Numbered from the stretch's first letter, positions 7,226 through 59,214 are shown. The stretch is 64,000 nucleotides of DNA from Patescibacteria group bacterium (GCA_040384485.1 JAZKJH010000005.1:3375-67374), one strand, 5' to 3'. Numbers and translations are program-made. The notes: generated from the letters alone by a model not told the origin.

Positions 7226-7825
7226 ATGAAGCTGTTTGGAATTACTGGAAATATTGGCTGTGGTAAAAGCACAGTTTGCAAACTCCTTAGCAAATACAAC
7301 GATATTGTAATTATAGATTGCGACCAAATCGCAAAAGAAATAATCGCCTCCTCAACTCACAGGCAGGACCTCATTCGGATTTTGGGAATCGAAATATATC
7401 CGCATGGACAAGTAGATTTTCAAAGTATCGGAAAGGTCATCTTCAGTGACGACAAAAAGAAGCGGTTACTGGAGGAGTTTGTTCACCCTCATGTGTGGAA
7501 AGCTGTTGAGGAACGTGTAACCCTTGTCCATCCAAGCTTCATATGTATTGTAGAATCCGCACTCATCTTTGAAACAAAGAGCGAGGAACGGTTCAATGGC
7601 GTTGTTGCAGTTGTGTGTGACGATGCAGAACAGTTTCGAAGATTAGAAACAAATAGAAAAATGGGTCGGGAAGAATACTATTCCCGACAGTCACACCAAC
7701 TACCCTCTTCGCTAAAAGAAAGTAGGGCTCAGTTTGTAATCGATACAAATTGTAGCCTGAAAGAACTTGAACAACGCGTACAAAACTTGTACCACAATCT
7801 CAAAACCCGAAAGGCTGAGCTATGA
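7226..7825 (+). CDS. coaE: Dephospho-CoA kinase
   Basis: P-loop GITGNIGCGKSTV at the N-terminus, 199 aa. It overlaps the downstream coaD by 4 nt. Confidence 0.8.
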   Translation: MKLFGITGNIGCGKSTVCKLLSKYNDIVIIDCDQIAKEIIASSTHRQDLIRILGIEIYPHGQVDFQSIGKVIFSDDKKKRLLEEFVHPHVWKAVEERVTLVHPSFICIVESALIFETKSEERFNGVVAVVCDDAEQFRRLETNRKMGREEYYSRQSHQLPSSLKESRAQFVIDTNCSLKELEQRVQNLYHNLKTRKAEL

Positions 7826-8955
7826 CTACGAGAAAAGCGGTGTATGCAGGAAGTTTCGATCCTATCACCAACGGGCACATCAACATTGTAGAAAGAGCGG
7901 CTCGGCTCTTTGATGAGGTTGTTGTGGTTGTGTCAGTTGCATCTTCGAAACATTACACATTTTGTGTATCGGAGAGAGTATTGATGGTAAAACAAACACT
8001 ATCTCATCTACAGAACGTTAGTGTACACATCTGTACCGACCAGTATGTGGTGAGTTATGCGTACTCTATCGGAGCTACAACTCTCGTACGAGGACTTCGA
8101 AACTCTGAAGACTTGGTACATGAACAGGTCCTAGCAGAAGAAAACCGAAACATCTGCCCAGAAGTTGAGACTGTTCTTATTCCCTGTATCCCCAACCTAA
8201 TGCACGTAAGCTCAAGTATGGTAAGAGGTCATGTAGGGGCAGACAGAAACTGGGAAGCACAGGTATCCCGTTCAGTTCCAGATCTCGTTGTACAAGAGCT
8301 AAAGAAAAAGTTCATTCTGGGAAAAGCCCGAGCACATTGGGCAAGACTCATGTCCGAAATTGGAAATCCAACTGGATCTGAAAAGATACTCCTGGAGGTC
8401 CTATCCCGCTACAGTGAATCGCATCGGGCGTATCACGACCTTATACATATTGTGAATATGCTGGATGAGCTTGATCTCATAGTTACAAAAGAAGGATTTT
8501 CTATAGCACTCAGGCTTGCAATCTGGTACCACGATGTGGTCTATGAGACAAAATCAAAAGACCATCCAGTAGTCGCGGATAACGAAGAGCGCAGTGCTTA
8601 TAAAGCACAGTTGGATATGGAACAGATGGGTCTTCCTTGTAACCTCATTCAAGAGGTCAAAAGACTTATTCTTGTAACCAAACATGCCGACACACCATCT
8701 GACCATGATGCCAAGCTTCTAATGGACCTAGATCTCATGATTCTTGGTAAAACAGCTGAAGAGTTTGATGAGTACGAAGCAGGAATTCGCATTGAGTACG
8801 AATGGGTTCCAGAAACAACCTTCAGTACCAAGCGAGCTCAAATTCTCCAGTCCTTTCTTAACCGAAAAATGATTTACTCAACACCCATCTTCCAGGAAAA
8901 GTACGAAGGATCAGCACGTACAAATCTTGAAAGGTCAGTCAGTAAACTCTCATAA
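7822..8955 (+). CDS. coaD: Phosphopantetheine adenylyltransferase (CoaD) fused to a C-terminal HD-domain phosphohydrolase
   Basis: N-terminus AVYAGSFDPITNGHINIVERA (the nucleotidyltransferase H-x-G-H signature). The C-terminal 200 aa carry H...HD...D motifs (RAYHDLIH, AIWYHDVVYE, SDHDAKLLMDLDL). Confidence 0.7.
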   Translation: MTTRKAVYAGSFDPITNGHINIVERAARLFDEVVVVVSVASSKHYTFCVSERVLMVKQTLSHLQNVSVHICTDQYVVSYAYSIGATTLVRGLRNSEDLVHEQVLAEENRNICPEVETVLIPCIPNLMHVSSSMVRGHVGADRNWEAQVSRSVPDLVVQELKKKFILGKARAHWARLMSEIGNPTGSEKILLEVLSRYSESHRAYHDLIHIVNMLDELDLIVTKEGFSIALRLAIWYHDVVYETKSKDHPVVADNEERSAYKAQLDMEQMGLPCNLIQEVKRLILVTKHADTPSDHDAKLLMDLDLMILGKTAEEFDEYEAGIRIEYEWVPETTFSTKRAQILQSFLNRKMIYSTPIFQEKYEGSARTNLERSVSKLS

Positions 8956-8991: not shown

Positions 8992-9888
8992 TTACTCATT
9001 TATGCTTTTCAAAAATAGTTCTCCTAGAACTTTGTGTCCATCCATGAGACAGTCAACAAGCCCATCGAAGTCTTGCCATCGTGCCTCTACCAGGTCGTCA
9101 CCAGCTTTTACTTCTCCGTCTAGATACACCGCAGAAAACAAAGCGGTCATAAGCTTGTGCTCTGACTTTCTATATCGATAATCATTTGCACGGACGGAGG
9201 CGATATACTTCACATCAGCAACTTCTATATTTCCAACCTCCTCTCTCGCCTCACGTCTCGCCGCGTCCTCAAGACATAAATCTTTTGGATCCACAAACCC
9301 ACCGGGAAATCTCCAATTCTTTTCTCCAGGCTTTCTACCAACAATAACTTTTCTTTCTGTTGTGTGTCGTATGGCAATATCAACCGCTTGAAAAGATGTG
9401 GGAAAGTTTTGTGAGTTACTAGCGTATATAACACCTGTACGGAAATCCTCAGAGTCAATAATTTTGTTTGCAAGTTTTTTACGCACTTCGGTTCCAGAAA
9501 CTGACTCATGTTTCGGCTCAACATACTGAGTTTTATGTTTACCAAGATAATGAGGAATAAAACTATCTCGAGACCCGAACAAAGTAATATCGTGATCTGA
9601 AAAATTATTTTCGATTAAAGTATCTAAGTTTTCAGACCATGCCTCGTTAGTTGAACAATCATATATAGGCAATATGTGTGCATCTGGATAATGCTTCTGC
9701 AACATCACTTTCCGAGTTTCAAAATCCAATGGGTCATTACTTCCAGCCCAACCTCCATTTACACCCAAAGCGACAAGTAGTTTATCTGCATTTTGTTTCG
9801 CTGTGTCCAAAAGATACCGATGTCCGTCGTGGATCTGAGGCACTTGGAGCCTACATACCACCACCCCTACTGTGTTATTTTTGTTCAT
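8992..9888 (-). CDS. nadM: Bifunctional NMN adenylyltransferase / Nudix ADP-ribose pyrophosphatase (NadM-Nudix type)
   Basis: HDGH nucleotidyltransferase motif and a Nudix box GGFVDPKDLCLEDAARREAREEVG. The start is moved to MNKNN (9888) so that the upstream operator and promoter are non-coding. Confidence 0.75.
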   Translation of the reverse strand: MNKNNTVGVVVCRLQVPQIHDGHRYLLDTAKQNADKLLVALGVNGGWAGSNDPLDFETRKVMLQKHYPDAHILPIYDCSTNEAWSENLDTLIENNFSDHDITLFGSRDSFIPHYLGKHKTQYVEPKHESVSGTEVRKKLANKIIDSEDFRTGVIYASNSQNFPTSFQAVDIAIRHTTERKVIVGRKPGEKNWRFPGGFVDPKDLCLEDAARREAREEVGNIEVADVKYIASVRANDYRYRKSEHKLMTALFSAVYLDGEVKAGDDLVEARWQDFDGLVDCLMDGHKVLGELFLKSINE

Positions 9889-9933
9889 ATTTATTAAATA
9901 AATTATATGGTTGATTATATACCTTTGCTTATT

Positions 9934-9952
9934 TAGTGTCAAGTCAACACTA
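9934..9952 (-). promoter_or_regulatory. Candidate NrtR operator (TAGTGT-caagtca-ACACTA) overlapping a TTGACA-17-TATAAT promoter for nadM
   Basis: 19-bp palindrome with the same half-sites as the sites at 12381 and 33962. On the minus strand it reads tagtgTTGACTTGACActa ... TATAAT. Confidence 0.6.
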
Positions 9953-9978
9953 TTTTTAAACAAATATAAAAATAAAAT

Positions 9979-10647
9979 CTATTGTGTCTTAAAGCAGTAC
10001 AAAGCTGCGGGTCGCATCACCCCTTTCTTAATGGTTCTCTTGGTATCCTTCAAAAGCCCAAGGGATAAAATTCTCTTTCTGAAATTTCTCTTATCCATAC
10101 TCTCTCCCAAAATAGCCTCGTACGTTTTCTGTAAATCAGAAAGTGTAAACTCTTTTGGCATCAAGTGCTTGGCGATGTCTGTATAGATTATTTTTGATCG
10201 TAGTCTTTCTATAGCGACATCTGTTATTTTATTGTGATCATAAGCTAGCTTCCCCACACTATACGCTGACTTCCAAACTGTAGGGGTTTTTGCTTTTTCA
10301 ACATTTTGCTCTGATTTGGAATTTATAAAACCTAAGTAGGCTACCGCCACCACTCTGCCTCGCGGATCCCGATCTATTTCGCTAAACGTGTATAGCTGTT
10401 CCTTGTAAATATCCTGGATCCCACCTTTGTCTCGAAGTAATCGATCAACGGATTGTTCTGCAGTTTCATCCACATGTATAAGCCCTCCTATATGGGCCAA
10501 TTGGCCCTTAAAGGTATTGTCCGAGGTAACCTCCCCCAACAAAACCTCTAGCTTACCTTCTGTGACACAGAAACAAACAACATCCACAGCAAGAGCTGCA
10601 AAACGTATATCAACTGGTATTGGATTATTGTCCTTAGATTTCTTCAT
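9979..10647 (-). CDS. nrtR: NrtR-type Nudix-related transcriptional regulator of NAD metabolism
   Basis: Degenerate Nudix domain (GGLIHVDETAEQSVDRLLRDKGG) followed by a C-terminal winged-helix domain. It is embedded in the NAD salvage operon. Confidence 0.7.
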   Translation of the reverse strand: MKKSKDNNPIPVDIRFAALAVDVVCFCVTEGKLEVLLGEVTSDNTFKGQLAHIGGLIHVDETAEQSVDRLLRDKGGIQDIYKEQLYTFSEIDRDPRGRVVAVAYLGFINSKSEQNVEKAKTPTVWKSAYSVGKLAYDHNKITDVAIERLRSKIIYTDIAKHLMPKEFTLSDLQKTYEAILGESMDKRNFRKRILSLGLLKDTKRTIKKGVMRPAALYCFKTQ

Positions 10648-10666
10648 GCTCTTATTATAACACTAA

Positions 10667-11653
10667 TTATTTTACTAATATTTGATCGATTGCTCCAATA
10701 GCTTGTTTTAATCGTTCTTCCGGACTACCGCTCACACAAATGAAGTTTCTGTTAGTTTGGGTTAATTTTTCAATAAACCTTTTGTGCATATCGTGACGAA
10801 TATGCTCACCGTCTCGCAAGCCATCTTGAACAAAAGGTATTTCATCCCCTGTAACAATGTATAAATCATATTTTCTGGTGTCAGAAAAATCATCGACTTC
10901 TTTAGATGCTTTGCCTACATATCTTTCGTGCCAAACACTTGTTGCAAAAGGGTCAGTATCGCATATTACCAATCCATTTCCAGATTCTGTAATAAAATCC
11001 TCTGTCATTGCTTGCATTCTTGCGATGTTTAAAAATTCCTCGCTTCTCCATCTAGCTTCTTCTCCACCAAAACCTTTGCTTTCAGAGTATAGTCGTCCGT
11101 ACTCCGGTACCCAGACAGTTTTGTAATATTTCGCCAAGTCGCGAGATAAAGTCGTTGTGCCTGTTGACTCTGCGCCCAGAACACAGACTCTTCTAGAGAA
11201 GTTAGCCCTCACGCACGGCTCTAAAAACGGCGCTGCGGCCAAAGGGTCCTTTCTGACCATTGTCGCTGAGATAGGTATTGTAACTCTGGCTCTGTCCACT
11301 AGCACATGAGCACATCCCATAAAAGATGCGTATGGGTCACCGTAGTCCTCCGAAGTGAATACTGCGTCTGGTTTTTTTCCAAGCACTTCCAGAGTAAACT
11401 TTGCCCACCCCTCTGAGTCGTCATCGGTTAACTTGTTATCTTCTACAACTTTTATATGTACGTCTGGATGAATTTTCCTCAACCAATCAGCTCGAAGATA
11501 GCCAGAAATAGTTTCGCTTCTTTTCCAGCAAAGTATAACTATCAACTCATCACACTGAGCTTTTGCAGTATCGATAAGGTATTTATGTCCACGGTGAGGC
11601 GGATAAAACTTACCAATAACAAGACCTGTTTTAAATTTAAAAGAATTATTCAT
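10667..11653 (-). CDS. nadR: NadR-like bifunctional NMN adenylyltransferase / ribosylnicotinamide kinase (no HTH domain)
   Basis: N-terminal GKFYPPHRGHKYLIDTA (the H-x-G-H motif). C-terminal P-loop VCVLGAESTGTTTLS of the RNK domain. Confidence 0.75.
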   Translation of the reverse strand: MNNSFKFKTGLVIGKFYPPHRGHKYLIDTAKAQCDELIVILCWKRSETISGYLRADWLRKIHPDVHIKVVEDNKLTDDDSEGWAKFTLEVLGKKPDAVFTSEDYGDPYASFMGCAHVLVDRARVTIPISATMVRKDPLAAAPFLEPCVRANFSRRVCVLGAESTGTTTLSRDLAKYYKTVWVPEYGRLYSESKGFGGEEARWRSEEFLNIARMQAMTEDFITESGNGLVICDTDPFATSVWHERYVGKASKEVDDFSDTRKYDLYIVTGDEIPFVQDGLRDGEHIRHDMHKRFIEKLTQTNRNFICVSGSPEERLKQAIGAIDQILVK

Positions 11654-11662
11654 AAATAATAA

Positions 11663-12370
11663 TTAGATTGTCTCAGTCTCTAGGTTACTTTTCGTTTGCT
11701 TACTGTATGACTTATGTTCTTTGTGCCAACCAATCAAGCCACTTATCGCTATTCCCAGGAATAAAACATATTCCAGAGAAATAAACTTCACTCCTTTAAC
11801 CCAGTATAGCCATATACCTATAACATCCACGATAATCCAAAGTACCCAAGACTCTAGTTTCTTCTTAACCAATAACCACTGTGCAATAAAGCTCATTGTA
11901 GTTGTAAACGCATCTAAAAAGGGATATGTTGTTGCTTCTGGAAAGTATTTTGGTAGCCAATTATCTAGATTCATAGTTACCCATGCTAAAACAACAGTAA
12001 GGAAAGCGACTAGGATAGCATAGAAAACATTCACCTTAAAGCTATTTGTTGATATTTTTAGAGTGTCATTTTTCACTCCGTTCTTATCCTTCTTTGGATG
12101 TAGCCAAACATACCAACCAATAAAACCTGTAATCAAAAAGTACCCCTGTTCCAACATATCTCCATACAGATTGATTTGGTAGAACAGGACCATATATAAT
12201 GTAACTCCAACTATTCCAATAGGCCAAGATAGGATTTTGGCTTTTGATGTGAGCCATACGCACCAAATGGTGAATATCGTACCGAAAAACTCAACATAAC
12301 TCATGGAATAATCCATAAGCGTGAAAAACGTAGTATTTATGCTGAAAAAACTTTGTATTGCTTCAATCAT
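11663..12370 (-). CDS. pnuC: Nicotinamide riboside transporter PnuC
   Basis: 235-aa membrane protein with the W-rich PnuC pattern (ILSWPIGIVGVTLY...WLYWVKG). Confidence 0.8.
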   Translation of the reverse strand: MIEAIQSFFSINTTFFTLMDYSMSYVEFFGTIFTIWCVWLTSKAKILSWPIGIVGVTLYMVLFYQINLYGDMLEQGYFLITGFIGWYVWLHPKKDKNGVKNDTLKISTNSFKVNVFYAILVAFLTVVLAWVTMNLDNWLPKYFPEATTYPFLDAFTTTMSFIAQWLLVKKKLESWVLWIIVDVIGIWLYWVKGVKFISLEYVLFLGIAISGLIGWHKEHKSYSKQTKSNLETETI

Positions 12371-12380
12371 AATGATATGG

Positions 12381-12399
12381 TTATAACTATTAGTGTATA
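12381..12399 (-). promoter_or_regulatory. Candidate NrtR operator, a perfect 19-bp palindrome TAGTGTATAATATACACTA, 11 bp upstream of the pnuC start
   Basis: Perfect inverted repeat with a GT-N7-AC core. It contains a TATAAT box and lies next to the nrtR-containing operon. Confidence 0.65.
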
Positions 12400-12443
12400 A
12401 TATACACTATCATAACCGATATTATAATGCAAGTATTTAAATA

Positions 12444-12478
12444 AAATCGCACGTTGCAACTACAAAGTGCGATTTTTA
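12444..12478 (-). terminator. Rho-independent terminator of the upstream Nudix gene
   Basis: Stem atcgcac ... gtgcgat with a U-run on the minus strand. Confidence 0.55.
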
Positions 12479-12483
12479 TCAAG

Positions 12484-12906
12484 TTAGTTATCGAAGAAGT
12501 TCTTACCTCCTTTATAAGCCTCAAAATAGTGCTCTAGCCCAGAAAATAGTGGTGATGGTAAGTTATCCAAGTCATACCAACCCCAACCTTCACACTTGTT
12601 TGGTTCCATAACTTGTGGTTCCCCGCTCTTCCAGTCAGCAATTAACCCAATGTCTACATAGTGTTTTGGGGCATATGTTTTTAGGTTTAATAACCGGAGA
12701 AAATTTATATTATCAATCTCGATTCCTGCTTCTTCCATAACTTCCCTCTTTGCTGACTCGGTAAAAGACTCCATGTATTCAAAATGTCCGCCCGGAAAAG
12801 CATATTCGCCTACTGCATGCGAACCTTTTCTTTTTCCAAGCAACACTTTGCCATCCTTAAGGATCATCACCCCTATTCCAACTTTTACTATATTTTCATT
12901 TTCCAT
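12484..12906 (-). CDS. Nudix hydrolase (MutT-like)
   Basis: Nudix box GGHFEYMESFTESAKREVMEEAGI. 140 aa. Confidence 0.75.
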   Translation of the reverse strand: MENENIVKVGIGVMILKDGKVLLGKRKGSHAVGEYAFPGGHFEYMESFTESAKREVMEEAGIEIDNINFLRLLNLKTYAPKHYVDIGLIADWKSGEPQVMEPNKCEGWGWYDLDNLPSPLFSGLEHYFEAYKGGKNFFDN

Positions 12907-12979
12907 ATTATATGATTTTTACATTTATTGGTGTTGCCATGTGTTTTTGAAAAAATAGTAATGTAGGACAATGATACTC

Positions 12980-28354: not shown

Positions 28355-30088
28355 TTACTTCATACGGAGACTCCAAACGTCTCCGTTTTGTATGTACACA
28401 ACCATATCACCCAAGTTGAAAAGAACCATATCAGTGCTAATATTCTTGTCACTGAGATGCTTTCCAGTTCCGTTTGTTGGAACTGTAATAAACAGCTCGC
28501 TGTCAGTTTCAATCGTTGCACATACTCCCTTTGGCAGGATGGCGACGTTTAACTCGGCAGTGTCTGTAATTTTCTCTGACAGTTTGTATGTTTTATAACT
28601 ACTGTCAAAAGAGAGCTCAACTTTTCTGTATGAACCATCTTTTGCAACACACGAAAGAACAATAAACCGGTGACCGGACTTGGCGTTCACCACCTTCAAA
28701 TTATCCAGTTCCGGCACACGGACATGGGCACATGTTCCTTCTCCGAAGGGAGATATAACATACGTTGCTCCCATCATATCCTGCACACCAACACCGTTCC
28801 ACCATTTGGTAGAGTTCACCACCACACCCCAGGTATTTCCCGCGGAAAGTAGGGGTTTTGCAAACATGTTTACAGTAACTTCAGTCAACCCGTTTTCGGT
28901 TACTGCAAACATACGGTTTTGGTAACTTAGAAATCGTGTCAGTGAGTACGGAAAAGAGAGTTCGAACTTTTCAAAACTCGTCTCTTGTATATACTCAAAC
29001 ACAACTACCTTGTTACGATAGTCCGCGACCAGGTATCCACCAGTGACTTTTACCACTTCTGCTTCTACAGAAGTCACCTGTCCGATTTTCCTGTTTTTGA
29101 AAATCTCCACAAGTAATCCCGATGAAAGCAGTGCTACGCCACAACTAAAAACTTTGACCACAGGATCATTAGCTACAGTCAAAAGTTTTTGGAAAACAAG
29201 TAAGTCTCCCACGCCCACAGTTACTGTTTTTAAAACTTTCGCTGTTTTTGGGGAAACGGTATTGTTATCCAAAGGAGAAGGAGCTTTGACTCGTTCCCCT
29301 TTTTGAAATGTAGACTCATACCAAGATAGCAAGTTTTTCGGTATGACAGAAAAGTCTCTCACTGCCCTGTTCAACCGAATACCTTTTGAAAAAACAGATG
29401 CATTCGCTTTCATTCTCCCTGTGAGATCTCCCATCTTAAAACCATCCAGAGTTCCCTTGTACGGGTGGATCCCTGTATAGATCTGGAAGGTAATAATCCC
29501 CCAAGAAAACCAATCTGTACTCTGGCTGAAACCCTTACTGTGCCAATCCCTAATTGAAGGCATGATCACAGTAGGTTTCCATTTTCCTATTGCCCACGAG
29601 TCGACATCAAAAACCCTTGGTTCAGGACTTTTGCTTTTCTTATGAACAACGTTCCAATTCAACTCGTTTGGATCAACCAGAGTTGCGCCGTGCGCATGTC
29701 CAAACTCAAACACTTCCCGCATCCTATGCACAAGTACCGACGCATCTTTATCTCCAAAGCCGTACTTAAGATAAAAATCATTAGTAAAAACTTGAGACAA
29801 GGGGTGTCCGTCTGCTTTCTCCATGTAGAACCCGAGAAATTGCCCCTTACTTCCAAAGACCAAATTTTTCGGAGCAACTATGTACGGATGCTGCAGTCCA
29901 CTAAGTAACTTGATTTTATCCTGTAAACCACTTCCCAAAACTTTTTGTGGGTCGTGGTATAGCTTTATGACAGTGTCAGAAAGTCCGTAAACTGAACCTT
30001 CACCGCCACTCGCTATGTGGTCGTTGGGTCGGAGAATAACACTTCCCCGCCCAACCAACTCAATCTCTGTGTTGGTTTTGATTTGCAT
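28355..30088 (-). CDS. Ser/Thr protein-kinase-like protein with a 300-aa C-terminal domain of unknown function. It is the kinase member of the TerY-P-like triad.
   Basis: Gly-loop IASGGEGSVYG, beta3 Lys in TVIKLY, hinge YMEKADGHPL, catalytic-loop-like HGATLVDPNELN, subdomain IX DWFSWGIITFQIYTGIHPY. The start ATG abuts the TAA stop of the phosphatase. Confidence 0.7.
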   Translation of the reverse strand: MQIKTNTEIELVGRGSVILRPNDHIASGGEGSVYGLSDTVIKLYHDPQKVLGSGLQDKIKLLSGLQHPYIVAPKNLVFGSKGQFLGFYMEKADGHPLSQVFTNDFYLKYGFGDKDASVLVHRMREVFEFGHAHGATLVDPNELNWNVVHKKSKSPEPRVFDVDSWAIGKWKPTVIMPSIRDWHSKGFSQSTDWFSWGIITFQIYTGIHPYKGTLDGFKMGDLTGRMKANASVFSKGIRLNRAVRDFSVIPKNLLSWYESTFQKGERVKAPSPLDNNTVSPKTAKVLKTVTVGVGDLLVFQKLLTVANDPVVKVFSCGVALLSSGLLVEIFKNRKIGQVTSVEAEVVKVTGGYLVADYRNKVVVFEYIQETSFEKFELSFPYSLTRFLSYQNRMFAVTENGLTEVTVNMFAKPLLSAGNTWGVVVNSTKWWNGVGVQDMMGATYVISPFGEGTCAHVRVPELDNLKVVNAKSGHRFIVLSCVAKDGSYRKVELSFDSSYKTYKLSEKITDTAELNVAILPKGVCATIETDSELFITVPTNGTGKHLSDKNISTDMVLFNLGDMVVYIQNGDVWSLRMK

Positions 30089-30940
30089 TTAGTTACCCTC
30101 TCTGTCGATTCTTACAACTGCATAAGAAATATCATCAACCGGACCATGTCCAACTTTTTGATAATCCTTGATGCCTCGGATCATGCGCCGTTTAGCAAAC
30201 TCACCGCTCAGACTTTTAAAATCCAAAAAGTTTAGAGTTGCGCTTTTCCAGTCCACGGAATCCACTTGTGTGACCCCGTCAGAAAACAATGCAACAAACT
30301 CCAAATCATTCTGAATTTCTTCTGTGCTGATAAAAACACTAAACCCACCAATCGCATCGGCAAAAGGAATGCTCGTCTCCTTTTCACTGACACAGACACT
30401 ATCACGATACTCGACTTCTATAAGTCGAAGTTTTGCATTCTCCAAAACACCACCGTGAATATTCTGTACATACAAATCTGAATCAGATTCGGTATACGCA
30501 GGATAATATGGAGCGTTATTGGCCCAATCAAACCTTTTTAAAGAGATCCTGCCGTCTGTGTACTTCAATGCAATCACACCATCACCTAAAATTCTGATGA
30601 TTCCCTGATCCTGCGACAGAAAAGAATACATACACGTTGCAAGTAAATCCGATCGGTCTAGGCCAAGACTTTTTTTTACTTCCTCTACTTTTTGTTTTGC
30701 TTGTGTCTCTACTTCAAAAACAGAAAAATCTGCCTTTGTGCCAACACCTAATACATTTGCTATAGACAATGCGTACAAACGAGCACCAATGTCTGTATGT
30801 CCACCAGTGGAACAACCATCCGAAACTACTGCATACCCCGAAGAGTCAGAACTCTTGGAGAGTGCATAATCCTGGCATGGCTTACCCGAGTTCAAGTGGC
30901 TATAACCAATGTAAAAGTAATGATCAGTATAAAACTTCAT
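30089..30940 (-). CDS. PP2C-family Ser/Thr protein phosphatase (triad member)
   Basis: Motifs CQDYAL, AVVSDGCSTGGH, ILGDGVIAL, SDGVTQ and DDISYAVVRI. The start is set at the ATG at 30940, preceded by GGAAGGAGAGG. The ORF-track TTG start at 30955 is rejected. Confidence 0.75.
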   Translation of the reverse strand: MKFYTDHYFYIGYSHLNSGKPCQDYALSKSSDSSGYAVVSDGCSTGGHTDIGARLYALSIANVLGVGTKADFSVFEVETQAKQKVEEVKKSLGLDRSDLLATCMYSFLSQDQGIIRILGDGVIALKYTDGRISLKRFDWANNAPYYPAYTESDSDLYVQNIHGGVLENAKLRLIEVEYRDSVCVSEKETSIPFADAIGGFSVFISTEEIQNDLEFVALFSDGVTQVDSVDWKSATLNFLDFKSLSGEFAKRRMIRGIKDYQKVGHGPVDDISYAVVRIDREGN

Positions 30941-30954
30941 AACCTCTCCTTCCA

Positions 30955-30988
30955 ATAAAAAAGGAGGAACGGTAGAGACCGTTCCTCC
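30955..30988 (-). terminator. Strong intrinsic terminator between the vWA and PP2C genes
   Basis: Perfect 11-bp stem ggaggaacggt-agag-accgttcctcc followed by UUUUUUAUU on the minus strand. The PP2C SD and ATG follow within 15 nt. Confidence 0.65.
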
Positions 30989-31003
30989 TGTGAACGACCT
31001 CGA

Positions 31004-31762
31004 TTAGATCGTGGCCGCGATATTCTGACTCGGTCCGCCAGTGCCCAGAGACTGGGACTGCGACGAGACAGACTGTGATACAAAGTTTGCGAGTTTGGCA
31101 AGTTTGCCTTTGGTCGCATCCCCAGCATCAATGTACTGATCCAATCCAGCATCCGACTGGAAGGCCGTAAGAATTGAAGCGTAGGAACCAGCATTGATAC
31201 CAACAAGAACGGTCACGAGTGACTCGATCTCTTCGGCTCTGGTTCCACGTCTCAACTCCTCTTTGATGGATAAGGATGTAGCTTTGGATTTGTTATCGTC
31301 CCCGTCAGTGATGACAAAAACGATACCATTTGCCAAAAAGTCCTGATCCATGAGTTTCTTTGCGTACGAGTTGGTAGCCCCAACCGCCGAAAAGACTGCA
31401 TCACACAATGGTGTCTCGCCTGATGGACGAAAGTCTGGATACAAAGTTGTATCAACTTCCGACAAAGGTTTGAAGCCATGAATCTCCTCAACACCACCAT
31501 GAAGTGAAGTTGAGAACATGATGACACGCAACAATAAGTTGTTGGCTCGTGGAGACTTTTTGCAAGCCTCCACGGCAACAATCAAAGCGTCGCGCAGTTC
31601 TTTGGCGAATCCCCAGGTTGAACCAGACACATCAACTGCAATCGTTGCAAGTGTGTACTCGGTTGCCCCGAGGTGTTCGATTCGCTTACCGGAAAACTGG
31701 AAGGCTTGTAACCCTCCAATTTTTCCGGTTTCCATTGTTGGGTCGTTCAAGATTTTTGGCAT
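31004..31762 (-). CDS. von Willebrand factor A (vWA) domain protein, TerY-like (triad member)
   Basis: MIDAS DxSGS in IAVDVSGSTWG and a downstream VITDGDDN. AAGGAG lies 6 nt before the ATG. The start is 10 nt after the pncA-like stop. Confidence 0.75.
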   Translation of the reverse strand: MPKILNDPTMETGKIGGLQAFQFSGKRIEHLGATEYTLATIAVDVSGSTWGFAKELRDALIVAVEACKKSPRANNLLLRVIMFSTSLHGGVEEIHGFKPLSEVDTTLYPDFRPSGETPLCDAVFSAVGATNSYAKKLMDQDFLANGIVFVITDGDDNKSKATSLSIKEELRRGTRAEEIESLVTVLVGINAGSYASILTAFQSDAGLDQYIDAGDATKGKLAKLANFVSQSVSSQSQSLGTGGPSQNIAATI

Positions 31763-31772
31763 TGTTTTCTCC

Positions 31773-32593
31773 TTATGCCAAGAAATCAGTAGTGGTGGTG
31801 ATCTTCATTCCTAAACGTTGCATATCCTTGAGCCATGCTTCCGCAATAGCTGGGAAATCAACAATGTTCGGGATTGCTGGAACAGGACTCATACCGTCAC
31901 GGAGCAAGTGAAACTTCTTCACCTGATCCGCTCCGATATTGTCGGCGATCTGCTGAACTGTGTTCAACACGCAGTGGCTCGATGCCTCCCCTGCGACCGC
32001 GACGATGTCCGCATCTGCAATGGTCTGCAAGAATGCAGTATTGAGACCGGTCGAAGGGTCCGACGGATCTGGCACTTCTGCCAGAAGGGCGCCGTAGTGT
32101 TCAGTCCAAGGATTTGAACCCTTTGTGACATAATCCACCATGGCGAACTGTTTCTCCGACCACCGTTGCAATGCGTCGTTCAGTACTGGATGGACATTGT
32201 GTCCAGCCGTACCAATGAGGCAATGCGGGGGCCAGATGGTAAGCGTAAATTTCTTCTGCGCTTCCAGTTCCTTGGTATACGCAAGTGAACGAGCTCGAAA
32301 GCTCGGATTGCGAGGGGTCCAGATTCCAGCTTCGATATCACTTGAACTGATCTGAGTAAATGGTGGAGGATTTTCACCCTTTCCATTCACCCACCAAGCA
32401 GGATGAGCGATATCGATCAGCCGATGACTATCCAATGTGACATGGATGTCATCCAGTTTGTGTCCGATACGATCAACGAGTTTTGCAACCCGCTTCATAT
32501 CAGCATCGGCCCCAGGAACCGGCAGTGCCGATCCCGGGAGATCGCAGAAATCAATCTGCGGATCGATGATCAAAAGATGCACTTTCAAACTAG
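31773..32593 (-). CDS. pncA: Isochorismatase-family cysteine hydrolase, probable nicotinamidase (PncA-like)
   Basis: The core LLIIDPQIDFC and its position downstream of pncB. The start is re-assigned to the GTG at 32593, preceded by AAGGAG. The ORF-track ATG at 32711 would overlap pncB by 77 nt. Confidence 0.55.
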
Positions 32594-32634
32594 ACTTTCT
32601 CACGACTATCTCCTTTATTTGTCTTGCGTTTATT

Positions 32635-33879
32635 TTACGAATGACATACTTCTTGGAAGGTATTGGTATACCCAACAAGTCTTTTTGCACGTTCGACTGC
32701 TTCAGCATCACCCGTAGCTTTTTCGATGTTATCCGAAAGCTTGACTACGTAGTAACCGTTGGCTTTGGTCGGTTTAACCACAATAGAAATGGACTTAAAG
32801 CCCAAGTTATTACTGGCGTTTGTGCCCCAACCAAATGTCGTGAGCATCCTTTGGTCAACCTTTGTATAGATCTCAATCATTCTGTCTGCATTGAGACCGT
32901 CTGCAAAGATAACCAGTTTCGTACGAGGATCAACTCCGATGAGTCGATACTCGTTGATACGTGCCTCCGCGTATTCTTCGGGAACCCCCGAGTCCTGACG
33001 CGAACCTTTCCATCGACGCAGCATATCTGCATCGACACAATTTTTGAAGAACCAATCACTACCGTAAGTATCAGGCAGAAAGATTGATAACCCCTGGCCG
33101 TATTCATTGTCCCAATCTGCAAGCATTCGCTTCTGCGAATACGCTGGGTCAACATCATCACTGTCTCGAAAAATCCCACTGTATACCATTGGCAGTTCGT
33201 GTGCGTTGGTACCTACTGGCATCAACCCGTACTTCTGCGCAAGATATGTATTGGAAGTTCCTTTGAAAGTTTCAGGGCACTCTTCCTTCATGACACTAAC
33301 AACGTAGTCCTGCCAGTTACGGCTAAACCGTCGTCGAGTACCAAATTCGGAGAATGTGATCCCTGGGTACTTCGCAAGCTTGTCGAGACTCTCACCCAAA
33401 CGAAGCCTGCCGTTTGCCTCCACTTTGTCGCGCTCAAAAGAAGAATAACCTCTCATGAGCTGGCGATTGTAGAGCTCGTTAACAACAGACATTCCAAAGT
33501 TTTCCCAGTAAGTTGCTTTCGCCCACTCACCAGCAAATCCAAGTTCAATCTGTCCATCCCGTTCTTCCAAATGGAATTCGGGAAGCTGTAGAGTCTGAAG
33601 AAAGTCGATGTAATCAAACTTAAACATCGGACTTCCGTACTCGTATGTGCCCATGATGTAGTGAAGCTCTTGAGGCGTAAAACGCAATGTGCGGATATGC
33701 TCCAATTCTTCACGAAGTTGACCGAGGTCAACTTTCTTACCAAGTAACACAGACTTGCTTCTGTTGATGAATGAGAACTCCACAGGAACCTTTGGATGCC
33801 GATGAAAAATCATCTGCCCCATTGTAAACTTGTAGAAATCTTGATCCATCAAAGAATGAATGACTGGTGCGTCCTTCAT
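32635..33879 (-). CDS. pncB: Nicotinate phosphoribosyltransferase
   Basis: 414 aa. The N-terminus is MDQDFYKFTMGQMIFHRHPKV, and the whole protein has PncB-like architecture. Confidence 0.85.
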   Translation of the reverse strand: MKDAPVIHSLMDQDFYKFTMGQMIFHRHPKVPVEFSFINRSKSVLLGKKVDLGQLREELEHIRTLRFTPQELHYIMGTYEYGSPMFKFDYIDFLQTLQLPEFHLEERDGQIELGFAGEWAKATYWENFGMSVVNELYNRQLMRGYSSFERDKVEANGRLRLGESLDKLAKYPGITFSEFGTRRRFSRNWQDYVVSVMKEECPETFKGTSNTYLAQKYGLMPVGTNAHELPMVYSGIFRDSDDVDPAYSQKRMLADWDNEYGQGLSIFLPDTYGSDWFFKNCVDADMLRRWKGSRQDSGVPEEYAEARINEYRLIGVDPRTKLVIFADGLNADRMIEIYTKVDQRMLTTFGWGTNASNNLGFKSISIVVKPTKANGYYVVKLSDNIEKATGDAEAVERAKRLVGYTNTFQEVCHS

Positions 33880-33961
33880 AACTCTCCTTTTGGGCCTTAG
33901 CCCTAAAATCCATATGTTGTTGTCAAAGGTCTATATAATGTTCTAAGTACACTATATACCT

Positions 33962-33980
33962 GTGTGTATTAAGTGTCAAG
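33962..33980 (-). promoter_or_regulatory. Candidate NrtR operator (AAGTGT-caagttt-ACACTA) overlapping a TTGACA-17-TATAGT promoter for pncB
   Basis: Half-sites identical to those at 9934 and 12381. The spacer is almost identical to the nadM site. Confidence 0.55.
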
Positions 33981-34083
33981 TTTACACTAAATTAGACAAT
34001 TAAATAGTAAATAAGTCAAATAAAACCGTTTTTCACGGCTTGAAGTGTTTACTTATGAAAAGCGGTAATGCATCGGTGAAGAA

Positions 34084-35742
34084 TTAGATTTTTTCACCAA
34101 TCAAAACCATATTTGTTTCTGGATAAGGTATTGAAGTTAATGTACTCCCCTCTTTGTTATAAAGTGCAACTTTGTTATTAAAACGGTTCTCAACTATCCA
34201 CGGTATTGCAAACGCTCGAGAAGATTTCTCCATTTCATTTGGGTTTTCAATTATCCTAAATCCAGCATTTTTTAAAGCATTCTTCCATTCATTGAAACTC
34301 CAAAAAGCAAACTCTTCATTCAATTCACTGTTCCAATTATCTGTATAATCCTTTTTGGTCATAAACTCCATAGCGTCTTTTAGTTTCAAAACTATGTATG
34401 TTTTGTTGTCCAGAATTTCTTCAGTATATTTTATTTTTGTGTCCTCTCCTCTTTTACCATTCTCTCTCATACCTCTTAGGTAGTCTTCTGCGAACCTAAC
34501 AAATCTAGCATGAGTAGAAAGCCCATTTAAATGTTCTTGTAAACTATCTTGTGAATCACAAACTTTCAAAATATCTTCGTTTGAACCGTCACTGCTATTA
34601 AGTTCCATATAGACTATTGAATCTTTGTTTTCAGGTCCCACCACATCACGTATAACCAACCTGCCTCCTTTGTTTAGTTGTTTTTGTTTAAGGTCGATGT
34701 AGTTCAAAAGTGATTCTTCTCTATCCCCATATGACCATATCTCGTGAGTTGTAGAGTTGCAAATAGTAGTATCGATAGACGAATCTTCAAATATTTTTTC
34801 CATCAAATTTCTCTGATGAAAATAAACGAAAGTGCCTCCAAATTCTCCGGCACGCTGTCTCTCAAGACACCGAGCAGTGAACTCACTTGTTATTTCTATT
34901 CCTATTATATCTGAGTCAGTAAAGTCTTTTGCAAGGAGAGTCATCAAAGCTCCGTCTGCACAACCTTCGTCAACTATTTTACCAGGTACAAGAGATTCTT
35001 TTATGTCTTTATATTTTGAAAGTAAAAGATTGGTATGACCCATCCCAATTGCGTATGTAGAGTAATTTCTAGTTTCAGTAAGACTTCCACTTTCAGTAAG
35101 TAACGGGTCTCTCCAAAGTCGTACTATCTTTGCAGTAATTTCAGGAAAATCCTTCCAGAGCTGTATGGTTGATCTTGAAACACCATCAACCAATCCTTGA
35201 TTGTCACTCCAGCTATTTCCTACTTCCACCAATTTTTTTATGTATTCGATAGGTGTATCTGACTTTAACAACTTATTTGCAACATCGTATTCAGCTGGTA
35301 AGACTGCAAAACCAAGTTTATTATACATATCGATCATAGTTGGGGTAGAACTAAGAACAACTGTATTTTTGTTTGTTAATTTGATATTACTTTCAGTCCT
35401 TTCACTTACTTCTTTTAAAATATAGTCAGCAAAGTGTTCGTTTGGATTAAAATGAGGAATAGCCACAATATCACATTGCACACCCAAAGATTCCCTATAC
35501 TCTTTTGAAAACCTATCTAGACCTAGTGCCCTCATATAAAATGGAACTGGATTGTAACGAGAATTTTCCTGGTTAGCCGAAGTCACTGCAAAGATTATAT
35601 GAGTGATTTTGTCATTTGAGTCTCCCTTATAATCTCCTACCAAATCAAGTTTACTAACTGGTAAACGCAAAATATCCCACAAATAGTTCTGTTGAAAAGC
35701 TGTGGTTAAAAGATGTCTTCCTGGAAATAACAAATACGCCAT
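34084..35742 (-). CDS. Two-domain protein: an N-terminal domain of about 250 aa of unknown function, plus a class I SAM-dependent methyltransferase
   Basis: Motif I GKIVDEGCADGALMTLLA and post-motif II GGRLVIRDVVGP. The N-terminus has only a faint resemblance to HIGH-type nucleotidyltransferases (LLFPGRHLLTTAFQQNYL). Confidence 0.5.
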   Translation of the reverse strand: MAYLLFPGRHLLTTAFQQNYLWDILRLPVSKLDLVGDYKGDSNDKITHIIFAVTSANQENSRYNPVPFYMRALGLDRFSKEYRESLGVQCDIVAIPHFNPNEHFADYILKEVSERTESNIKLTNKNTVVLSSTPTMIDMYNKLGFAVLPAEYDVANKLLKSDTPIEYIKKLVEVGNSWSDNQGLVDGVSRSTIQLWKDFPEITAKIVRLWRDPLLTESGSLTETRNYSTYAIGMGHTNLLLSKYKDIKESLVPGKIVDEGCADGALMTLLAKDFTDSDIIGIEITSEFTARCLERQRAGEFGGTFVYFHQRNLMEKIFEDSSIDTTICNSTTHEIWSYGDREESLLNYIDLKQKQLNKGGRLVIRDVVGPENKDSIVYMELNSSDGSNEDILKVCDSQDSLQEHLNGLSTHARFVRFAEDYLRGMRENGKRGEDTKIKYTEEILDNKTYIVLKLKDAMEFMTKKDYTDNWNSELNEEFAFWSFNEWKNALKNAGFRIIENPNEMEKSSRAFAIPWIVENRFNNKVALYNKEGSTLTSIPYPETNMVLIGEKI

Positions 35743-36816: not shown

Positions 36817-36886
36817 GTCGCTTCTCCTTGTTGTGTTCTGGTGATACTATGACATAAAACTATAAAAAAGCAAATTAAAAACCACT

Positions 36887-58934: not shown

Positions 58935-58940
58935 AAAATG

Positions 58941-59027
58941 CGGACAGAGTGGGATTCGAACCCACGGTACCGATTAGAGTACGGCGGTTTAGTAAACCGC
59001 TGATTTAAGCCACTCATCCATCTGTCC
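58941..59027 (-). tRNA. Type II (long variable arm) tRNA, Ser-like, with an anomalous anticodon loop UUACUAA
   Basis: Acceptor GGACAGA/TCTGTCC, 3-bp D-stem GAT/ATC with an AGTGG loop, anticodon stem GCGGT/ACCGC, variable arm with a GTAC/GTAC stem, T-arm GTGGG-TTCGAAT-CCCAC, discriminator G. Position 34 is A. Confidence 0.55.
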
Positions 59028-59106: not shown

Positions 59107-59196
59107 GGAGATGTGTCAGAGTGGTCTATCGTGCCTCTTTGCTAAAGAGGTGTACCCTTTAATAAGGTACCGACGGTTCGAATCCGTCCATCTCCG
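59107..59196 (+). tRNA. tRNA-Ser (anticodon GCU)
   Basis: Acceptor GGAGATG/CATCTCC, anticodon arm CCTCT-TTGCTAA-AGAGG, long variable arm, T-arm GACGG-TTCGAAT-CCGTC, discriminator G. The D-stem pairing is poor. Confidence 0.65.
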
Positions 59197-59214
59197 CTTT
59201 TAATAAAGTCTAGG

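Follow-up and report, generated by a model that had tools for sequence, protein, structure and literature searches.

The question raised by this stretch of DNA, a window of 64,000 nucleotides (nt) from a genome fragment of a Patescibacteria (candidate phyla radiation, CPR) bacterium (GCA_040384485.1 JAZKJH010000005.1:3375-67374), is how its genes for the salvage of nicotinamide adenine dinucleotide (NAD) are regulated. Several of these genes lie side by side on the minus strand, namely, pnuC, a nadR-like gene, the regulator gene nrtR, and a nadM-Nudix fusion, and they are accompanied by palindromes of the form TAGTGT-N7-ACACTA. Our answer, to which we assign a probability of about 85%, is that the window encodes an NrtR regulon for NAD salvage, in which NrtR would act on four operators of three operons.

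We took as the operator consensus the 19-bp palindrome TAGTGT-N7-ACACTA, which carries the GT-N7-AC core of the NrtR family as defined by Rodionov et al. 2008, whose motifs are mostly 21-bp palindromes (PMC2330246), and which falls in the size range of about 19 to 21 bp by which NrtR sites are recognized. Two perfect sites, operators A and B, occur in the 64 kb, where base composition predicts 0.007, and with up to one mismatch the number rises to four (operators C and D) against about 0.24 expected. In Markov simulations, the mean number of sites with at most one mismatch was 0.16, and none of the 300 runs reached four. The palindromes are genuine and occur much more often than chance would allow. 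A weight matrix trained on 24 sites of related loci alone, without the window sites, scored the four window sites at 21.1 to 24.4 bits, while the next best position in the 64 kb reached 8.8 bits. All four are located 5′ of NAD-salvage genes, operators C and D with their centers 35 bp apart, 57 to 110 nt upstream of pncB and 21 kb from the pnuC/nadM cluster. No matrix match was found upstream of the stand-alone Nudix gene next to pnuC (12907..12979). The preliminary description of this locus had claimed two perfect palindromes with identical half-sites and a core agreeing with the published motif (PMC2330246), and had proposed a matrix scan for the motif upstream of NAD genes; the sequence bears out the sites, their half-sites, and their core, and the scan finds the motif where it was predicted within the window. 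Operator B, however, had been placed at 12381..12399, 11 bp before the pnuC ATG, instead of 20 nt before it at 12391..12409, and operators C and D on the pncB promoter had been overlooked. One further candidate, the 2-mismatch palindrome TTGTGTTCTGGTGATACTA (36831..36849), 15 nt before the isocitrate dehydrogenase ATG, was rejected as a fifth operator, given that its AC core is broken and its matrix score is below 8 bits; it is probably a chance occurrence.

Close relatives carry the motif at orthologous positions, as seen when we compared eight loci (L081, L082, L084, L085, and L088 to L091) whose NrtR proteins are 53 to 90% identical to that of the window. A site is found directly 5′ of pnuC in all three loci with the order pnuC-nadR-nrtR (L082 at 8241, L084 at 5761, and L090 at 8256), and one to three sites occupy the gap after nrtR and before nadM-Nudix(-nadV) in all eight, this gap preceding nadV in L088. 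A 19-mer identical to operator A stands at the equivalent position in L082 and L083. Across the relatives, the arm sequence is conserved and the 7-nt spacer is variable. When the window interval 9889..9978 is set against L081, L084, L089, L090, and L091, these relatives show three operators before nadM, of which only the middle one is left in the window and in L082, its 90% relative; the promoter-proximal position of the window has decayed (GGTATATAATCAACCATATAA), and its nadM is without the AGGAG ribosome-binding site found in the relatives. The upstream operators of the relatives embed TTGACA (..cTTGACACTA), and their promoter-proximal operator, TATAGTGT..AGAACAnTA, covers the −10 box, with center-to-center spacings of 40 to 42 bp and 34 to 36 bp. 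Operator D is of the same sequence type and spacing as this promoter-proximal operator, and the pncB promoter of the window has the full two-operator design.

The placement of the operators upstream of NAD genes has the geometry of repressor sites, as in published NrtR regulons, where sites overlap promoters, implying repression (PMC2330246). According to the promoter scanner, operator A covers the −35 hexamer of the nadM promoter, a TTGACA-17-TATAAT element matching at 12 of 12 positions, as the preliminary description had read this site in the 90-bp gap between nrtR and nadM. At pncB (11 of 12 positions), the −35 hexamer lies inside operator C, and the −10 hexamer, together with the expected transcription start, is overlapped by operator D. 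The TATAAT in operator B, earlier taken for the pnuC promoter box, reads on the plus strand and is thus not the −10 box of pnuC, a minus-strand gene. We infer instead that the operator B arm TAGTGT (12409..12404) serves as a TAnnnT −10 element, the −35-like hexamer TTGCAT standing 17 nt upstream; this 17-nt spacing is kept between the window and L082, with TTGCAT or TTGCAG as the hexamer.

Together, these features suggest the following mechanism, whose inferred elements are the binding of the window NrtR to DNA, the repression that it exerts, and the nature of its effector. NrtR most likely binds the four 19-bp palindromes as a dimer. At operator B, which covers the region where the pnuC-nadR-nrtR operon starts, binding would result in autorepression; at operator A, over the −35 hexamer, it would control nadM-Nudix; and at operators C and D, over the −35 and the −10/start regions, it would control an operon of pncB and pncA, possibly with a 252-residue gene as its last member. 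Since operators and promoter hexamers have bases in common (cTTGACAC and TATAGTGT), bound NrtR would exclude RNA polymerase sterically. If the NrtR proteins characterized so far are a guide, a metabolite derived from NAD, for which ADP-ribose is the most likely candidate, would bind the catalytically degenerate Nudix domain and cause NrtR to leave the DNA, and this release would turn on riboside uptake, nicotinamide/nicotinate salvage, and nicotinamide mononucleotide (NMN) adenylylation while NAD is being consumed.

Among the cluster genes scanned, nrtR is the only one with a DNA-binding domain. Its product shows the N-terminal Nudix-like and C-terminal winged-helix domains that characterize the family, with a strong match of the latter (PF21906, NrtR_WHD; 5.4e-26, 91 bits versus a cut-off of 27) and a weak one of the former (PF00293, 1e-4), and it aligns over its full length to PDB entries 5bs6 (1.5e-36) and 3gz5 (4.5e-23). 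In the alignment, its Nudix box reads G-x5-E-x7-R-L-L-R-D-K-G, with R-L-L-R-D-K in place of REUxEE. Because the box is degenerate, the Nudix domain is probably not catalytic, in line with the degenerate, inactive Nudix signature of many NrtR-family members (PMC2330246) and with the degenerate box of noncatalytic NrtRs (PMC2330246, PMC6800001).

Several observations weigh against this regulon model or parts of it. For pnuC, the promoter is only our reading, and the best minus-strand candidate of the scanner there puts its −10 hexamer against the ATG. No terminator between nrtR and nadM was found in the scan of the window, which makes the operon boundaries provisional; nadM, earlier described as its own transcription unit, does have a promoter to itself, but transcription from nrtR may also read through into it. 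Further observations concern the ligand, which is the weakest link of the mechanism. The closest solved relative by sequence is 5bs6, the L-arabinose-responsive BtAraR, ahead of the Shewanella NrtR (3gz5), and the NCBIfam model for the ADP-ribose-responsive repressor (NF050029, an equivalog) gives 130.6 bits, far under its cut-off of 400. The protein is thus a member of the wider family, as far as sequence tells, outside the narrow NF050029 equivalog, and its effector is uncertain given that its nearest solved relative responds to arabinose. The sites could therefore be NrtR operators that answer to a signal other than ADP-ribose, for instance to a pentose or a ribose-phosphate, as AraR-type members do, or to NAD, NMN, or nicotinamide riboside, all the more since the family has been recruited to other ligands (PMC2330246, PMC4666351). 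We consider this alternative rather unlikely, although it is the strongest of those weighed here, because all four operators lie on NAD-salvage genes with no sugar genes nearby, and those NrtRs of NAD genes that have been tested are ADP-ribose responsive (PMC2330246, PMC6800001).

That the palindromes are bound by NrtR at all is suggested by their breadth across phyla. We surveyed 80 distant loci, among the matches listed, with NrtR homologues 38 to 51% identical to that of the window, from Acidobacteriota, Planctomycetota, Chloroflexota, Cyanobacteria, Verrucomicrobiota, delta-proteobacteria, Saccharibacteria, other CPR groups, and DPANN archaea. In 51 of the 80 nrtR loci, we counted 66 sites with no more than one mismatch, against 0.3 expected, and cyanobacterial loci (L056, L063, and L068) are among those carrying TAGTGT-N7-ACACTA. 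Of the 77 matrix matches in the distant loci, 29 are directly 5′ of nrtR, and the others are 5′ of homologues of pncA, pncB, pnuC, or nadV. Both the conservation at orthologous positions and the co-occurrence with nrtR are thus as in known members of the family, and the sequence evidence indicates that TAGTGT-N7-ACACTA is a general operator of a large NrtR clade and not peculiar to this genome. Since the window does contain other small genes without an assigned function, another transcription factor might bind the palindromes and their nearness to nrtR be coincidental, but the association with nrtR in such scattered loci, the published NrtR core, and the lack of a DNA-binding domain in the other cluster genes scanned make this highly improbable. 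A reading of the palindromes as chance inverted repeats or as hairpins acting as terminators or attenuators, for which single-strand folding energies of −3.6 and −5.0 kcal/mol (z-scores of about −3) might speak, can be dismissed, since the stems have just 6 to 8 bp and no T-tract after them, the arms themselves are conserved without compensatory changes seen, and chance would yield next to no perfect sites. The earlier claim that NrtR represses its own operon and nadM is supported by the orthologous sites, the matrix of the relatives, the cross-phylum co-occurrence, and the published core and placement.

Table 1. Features of the NAD-salvage loci and of their surroundings in the window (promoters, terminators, and gene functions as predicted)
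Feature	Coordinates	Strand	Remarks
Operator A	9934..9952		TAGTGTcaagtcaACACTA, also written TAGTGTCAAGTCAACACTA; perfect; 23.2 bits
Operator B	12391..12409		TAGTGTATAATATACACTA; perfect; 24.4 bits; 20 nt 5′ of pnuC ATG (12370)
Operator C	33971..33989		AAGTGTCAAGTTTACACTA; 1 mismatch; 23.3 bits
Operator D	33936..33954		TAATGTTCTAAGTACACTA; 1 mismatch; 21.1 bits
nadM promoter	9942..9914	−	TTGACA-17-TATAAT; −35 at 9942..9937, −10 at 9919..9914
pnuC promoter, candidate −35-like hexamer	12427..12432	−	TTGCAT
pncB promoter	33979..33951	−	TTGACA-17-TATAGT; −35 at 33979..33974, −10 at 33956..33951
coaD	7822..8955	+	Phosphopantetheine adenylyltransferase; TIGR01510, 1e-42
nadM-Nudix fusion	8992..9888	−	ATG at 9888; Pfam NUDIX, 3e-16; weak CTP_transf_like
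nrtR	9979..10647	−	Nudix-related transcriptional regulator, degenerate Nudix box
nadR-like gene	10667..11653	−	NMN adenylyltransferase and ribosylnicotinamide-kinase-like, no helix-turn-helix; TIGR01526, 1.8e-63
pnuC	11663..12370	−	Nicotinamide riboside transporter; Pfam NMN_transporter, 9e-49
Hairpin after Nudix gene, probable terminator	12443..12476	−	10-bp stem AAAATCGCAC/GTGCGATTTT, T-rich tail; read from sequence
Stand-alone Nudix hydrolase	12484..12906	−	140 residues; Pfam NUDIX, 2e-17; upstream neighbor of pnuC operon
252-residue gene to 577-residue gene	28355..31762	−	
Terminator, strong	30989..30962	−	After 252-residue gene; end of pncB unit
252-residue gene	31004..31762	−	DxSGS (vWA-like) motif; 10 nt after pncA; no Pfam match
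pncA-like gene	31773..32690	−	Isochorismatase family; after pncB; true start probably near 32600
pncB	32635..33879	−	Nicotinate phosphoribosyltransferase; Pfam NAPRTase, 1e-41
Terminator	34041..34023	−	Between 552-residue gene and pncB promoter
552-residue gene	34084..35742	−	NadM-like fold, class I methyltransferase, and C-terminal domain; upstream of pncB operators
tRNA-Ser (ACT)	58940..59027	−	Called by ARAGORN
tRNA-Ser (GCT)	59107..59197		Normal

The system is known in kind, a textbook NrtR repressor regulon, and every target gene in the window has a published NrtR precedent: the regulons listed in Table 1 of PMC2330246 include nrtR<#>pnuC-nadR-#nadM-pncB in Hahella, #nadR-pnuC-nrtR in streptococci, #nadM-nadV in Synechocystis, and #pncA-pncB in lactobacilli. 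The Hahella regulon is nearly identical, with the same regulator family, the same targets pnuC, nadR, nadM, and pncB, one site before pnuC, and a second, internal site before nadM. It differs in that nrtR is divergent, whereas in the window nrtR is last in the pnuC operon and pncB-pncA forms a separate locus with two operators, and in its host, a gamma-proteobacterium rather than one of the Patescibacteria. The NrtR of Synechocystis sp. PCC 6803 (Slr1690), which controls nadM-nadV, nadA, and nadE and has gel-shift-validated sites with release by ADP-ribose, shares with the window protein a Nudix-like domain of perturbed signature and a winged helix, and in both systems the promoter of nadM(-Nudix) is the site of tandem palindromic operators; nadM-nadV has its counterpart in the relatives of the window, while the targets nadA and nadE were not seen in the window. 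ADP-ribose suppresses the DNA binding of both the Synechocystis and the Shewanella NrtR in gel shifts (PMC2330246), and the NrtR of M. smegmatis is an autorepressor released from DNA by ADP-ribose (PMC6800001). The streptococcal operon is likewise an autoregulated unit of pnuC, nadR without the helix-turn-helix domain, and nrtR, but its gene order differs and its published operator motif is very different (PMC6800001). The Bacteroides thetaiotaomicron AraR (5bs6) resembles the window NrtR in its two-domain architecture, but it governs arabinose utilization and responds to L-arabinose.

Our understanding of the NrtR mechanism is unchanged by these results, which extend a well-described family to the Patescibacteria; in our literature search, we found no paper linking NrtR with this group. 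One consensus serves NrtR homologues of many bacterial phyla and of DPANN archaea, so the NAD-salvage regulons of uncultured organisms with small genomes are easily predicted by matrix scanning. It appears that these reduced genomes invest in taking up and recycling pyridine precursors under regulation, in keeping with a need for vitamins from a host or community.

As a separate observation, NrtR homologues of about 40 to 45% identity are encoded in metagenome-assembled genomes of DPANN and other archaea (L009, L010, L011, L047, L050, and L065), labeled as Woesearchaeota, Nanobdellati, and a Methanosarcinales bin, with perfect or near-perfect TAGTGT-N7-ACACTA sites. Evidently, NrtR and its operator moved jointly between CPR-like bacteria and archaea.

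The host and the gene calls agree with the preliminary description in most respects. The best NrtR homologues (53 to 92% identity), as far as their source is named, are all from Patescibacteria, Parcubacteria, or Paceibacterota, as expected from the CPR-like host that had been claimed; a metagenome scan with the single NrtR protein of the window gave three loci, and a look-up of its exact sequence gave no match. A protein 100% identical to the product of the 552-residue gene is encoded on a 74,660-bp contig of a Patescibacteria metagenome-assembled genome. The window also encodes LigA, CTP synthase (PyrG), type IV pilus ATPases, an Na+/H+ exchanger, isocitrate dehydrogenase, and seven tRNAs, which shows that the DNA is cellular and rules out a phage origin. 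Pfam and NCBIfam scans uphold pnuC, the nadR-like gene, nrtR, and nadM-Nudix, and the further Nudix hydrolase noted upstream is a separate gene, whose orthologues adjoin pnuC or nrtR in L082 and L081. The gaps from this gene to nadM-Nudix are 113, 9, 19, and 90 nt, so that not all four genes of the cluster are spaced by less than 20 nt, as had been stated. The cluster had also been called complete; it does hold these genes, but the regulon also includes pncB-pncA 21 kb away, and the kinase domain of the NadR-like protein is without its P-loop Lys. The hairpin in the 113-nt gap was not reported by the terminator scanner because its loop exceeds 8 nt, and it probably separates the Nudix gene from the pnuC unit. 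L082 has a hairpin at the equivalent place (about 8185..8221) with a different stem, AAAATCCCCC/GGGGGATTTT, which is consistent with a conserved terminator insulating the pnuC operon.

Of the proteins encoded in the cluster, PnuC scores well above its NCBIfam cut-off (TIGR01528, 105.9 bits versus 42.45). The NadR-like protein is clearly homologous to NadR: it matches PDB entry 9x6f (2.5e-42), contains the NMN adenylyltransferase (NMNAT) motif GKFYPPHRGH, and aligns to residues 64 to 406 of the 411 of the enterobacterial NadR model PRK08099, which, starting only at residue 64, shows that the helix-turn-helix domain is absent. Its TIGR01526 score (214.7 bits) is below the cut-off of 341, and its Walker A motif is GAESTGTTTL instead of the canonical GxxxxGK[ST], with Thr for Lys at residue 166. 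Given this replacement, riboside-kinase activity is uncertain. The motif is invariant in four orthologues, Lys is present in all four solved NadR structures, and among the 150 nearest representatives of 50% clusters the position is occupied by K in 74, T in 59, and S in 7, suggesting a large Lys-less subfamily that may carry out a noncanonical step of riboside salvage. The nadM-Nudix product contains the motifs HDGH, SGTEVR, and REAREEVG, with a Nudix box altered by an E-to-D exchange and a 1-residue insertion, and matches the NCBIfam models for bifunctional NadM/Nudix proteins weakly (at most 41 bits versus cut-offs of at least 350); from its sequence, it would be a NadM-type NMNAT joined to an ADP-ribose pyrophosphatase-like Nudix domain.

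At the second locus, PncB is above the cut-offs of both of its models (NF003704, 399.3 bits versus 379; TIGR01514, 308.5 versus 269.55). The pncA-like gene is a probable nicotinamidase: its matches are weak (NF008623, 4e-8, 33 bits versus a cut-off of 174; Pfam Isochorismatase, 0.003), the motifs IIDPQIDFC and SSHCV are visible, its product is 67% identical to that of an L094 gene located after three NrtR sites, and its position after pncB and NrtR sites is conserved. The gene order around the pncA-like and the 252-residue genes is the same in L094, and the 252-residue gene is probably the last of the pncB unit. Beyond the strong terminator that follows it come a PP2C phosphatase and a 577-residue protein with a faint kinase match, an order of vWA-like, PP2C, and 577-residue genes that also follows the NrtR-controlled pncA-like gene in L094 (8718..11674). 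We take this trio to resemble a 'TerY-P'-like triad, whose vWA-like gene may be cotranscribed with pncB-pncA.

Outside the operator finding, the most interesting lead in the neighborhood is the 552-residue gene, which lies upstream of pncB and itself has no operator in front of it in the window. Its protein family, highly conserved in CPR and DPANN, has more than 1,300 homologues; the top 120 of those listed share 50% identity or more with the window protein and are annotated only as methyltransferases. The N-terminal 215 residues gave no Pfam match, and a fold search with the full-length model retrieved methyltransferases only. When this domain was modeled alone (predicted local distance difference test score, 93.5), the top 19 Foldseek matches in the PDB were all NadM-type NMNATs (1ej2, E value of 2e-8 and template modeling score of 0.79; also 2qjo and 2r5w), so that we assign it with high confidence, on the basis of the model, a NadM-type NMNAT fold, preceding a class I S-adenosylmethionine methyltransferase domain. 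Of the NMNAT motif, the domain retains G-R, along with an SRYNPxPFxxR element, and an invariant T..Q stands in place of HxGH; when the protein was compared profile to profile with the local NadM family, the match fell short of significance (E value of 0.018, probability of 2.6%), with sensibly aligned motifs. In five unrelated loci, namely, L003, L010 (where an operator lies in between), L011, L084, and L094, a homologue directly adjoins nrtR, and our literature search found no paper describing such an NMNAT-like/methyltransferase fusion. Possible roles for the protein are those of a new enzyme that binds NAD/NMN or modifies NAD, or of a sensor linked to NAD salvage. Genes that recur beside nrtR or behind its operators, this fusion and the NadR subfamily without the Lys among them, are candidates for steps still missing from the NAD metabolism of these lineages, and we suggest, quite tentatively and with the odds somewhat against it, that in Patescibacteria and DPANN archaea the NAD economy linked to NrtR includes enzymes not yet understood.

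Two further observations concern other parts of the window. The coaD gene adjoins the NAD cluster, convergent with nadM, and its product carries a fused C-terminal extension of about 200 residues without a family match but with H..HD-like motifs (LIHIVN and WYHDVVY). Finally, a tRNA-Ser with the anticodon ACT, and thus A at position 34, adjoins the normal tRNA-Ser(GCT); in bacteria, a serine tRNA with an unmodified-looking A34 is unusual.

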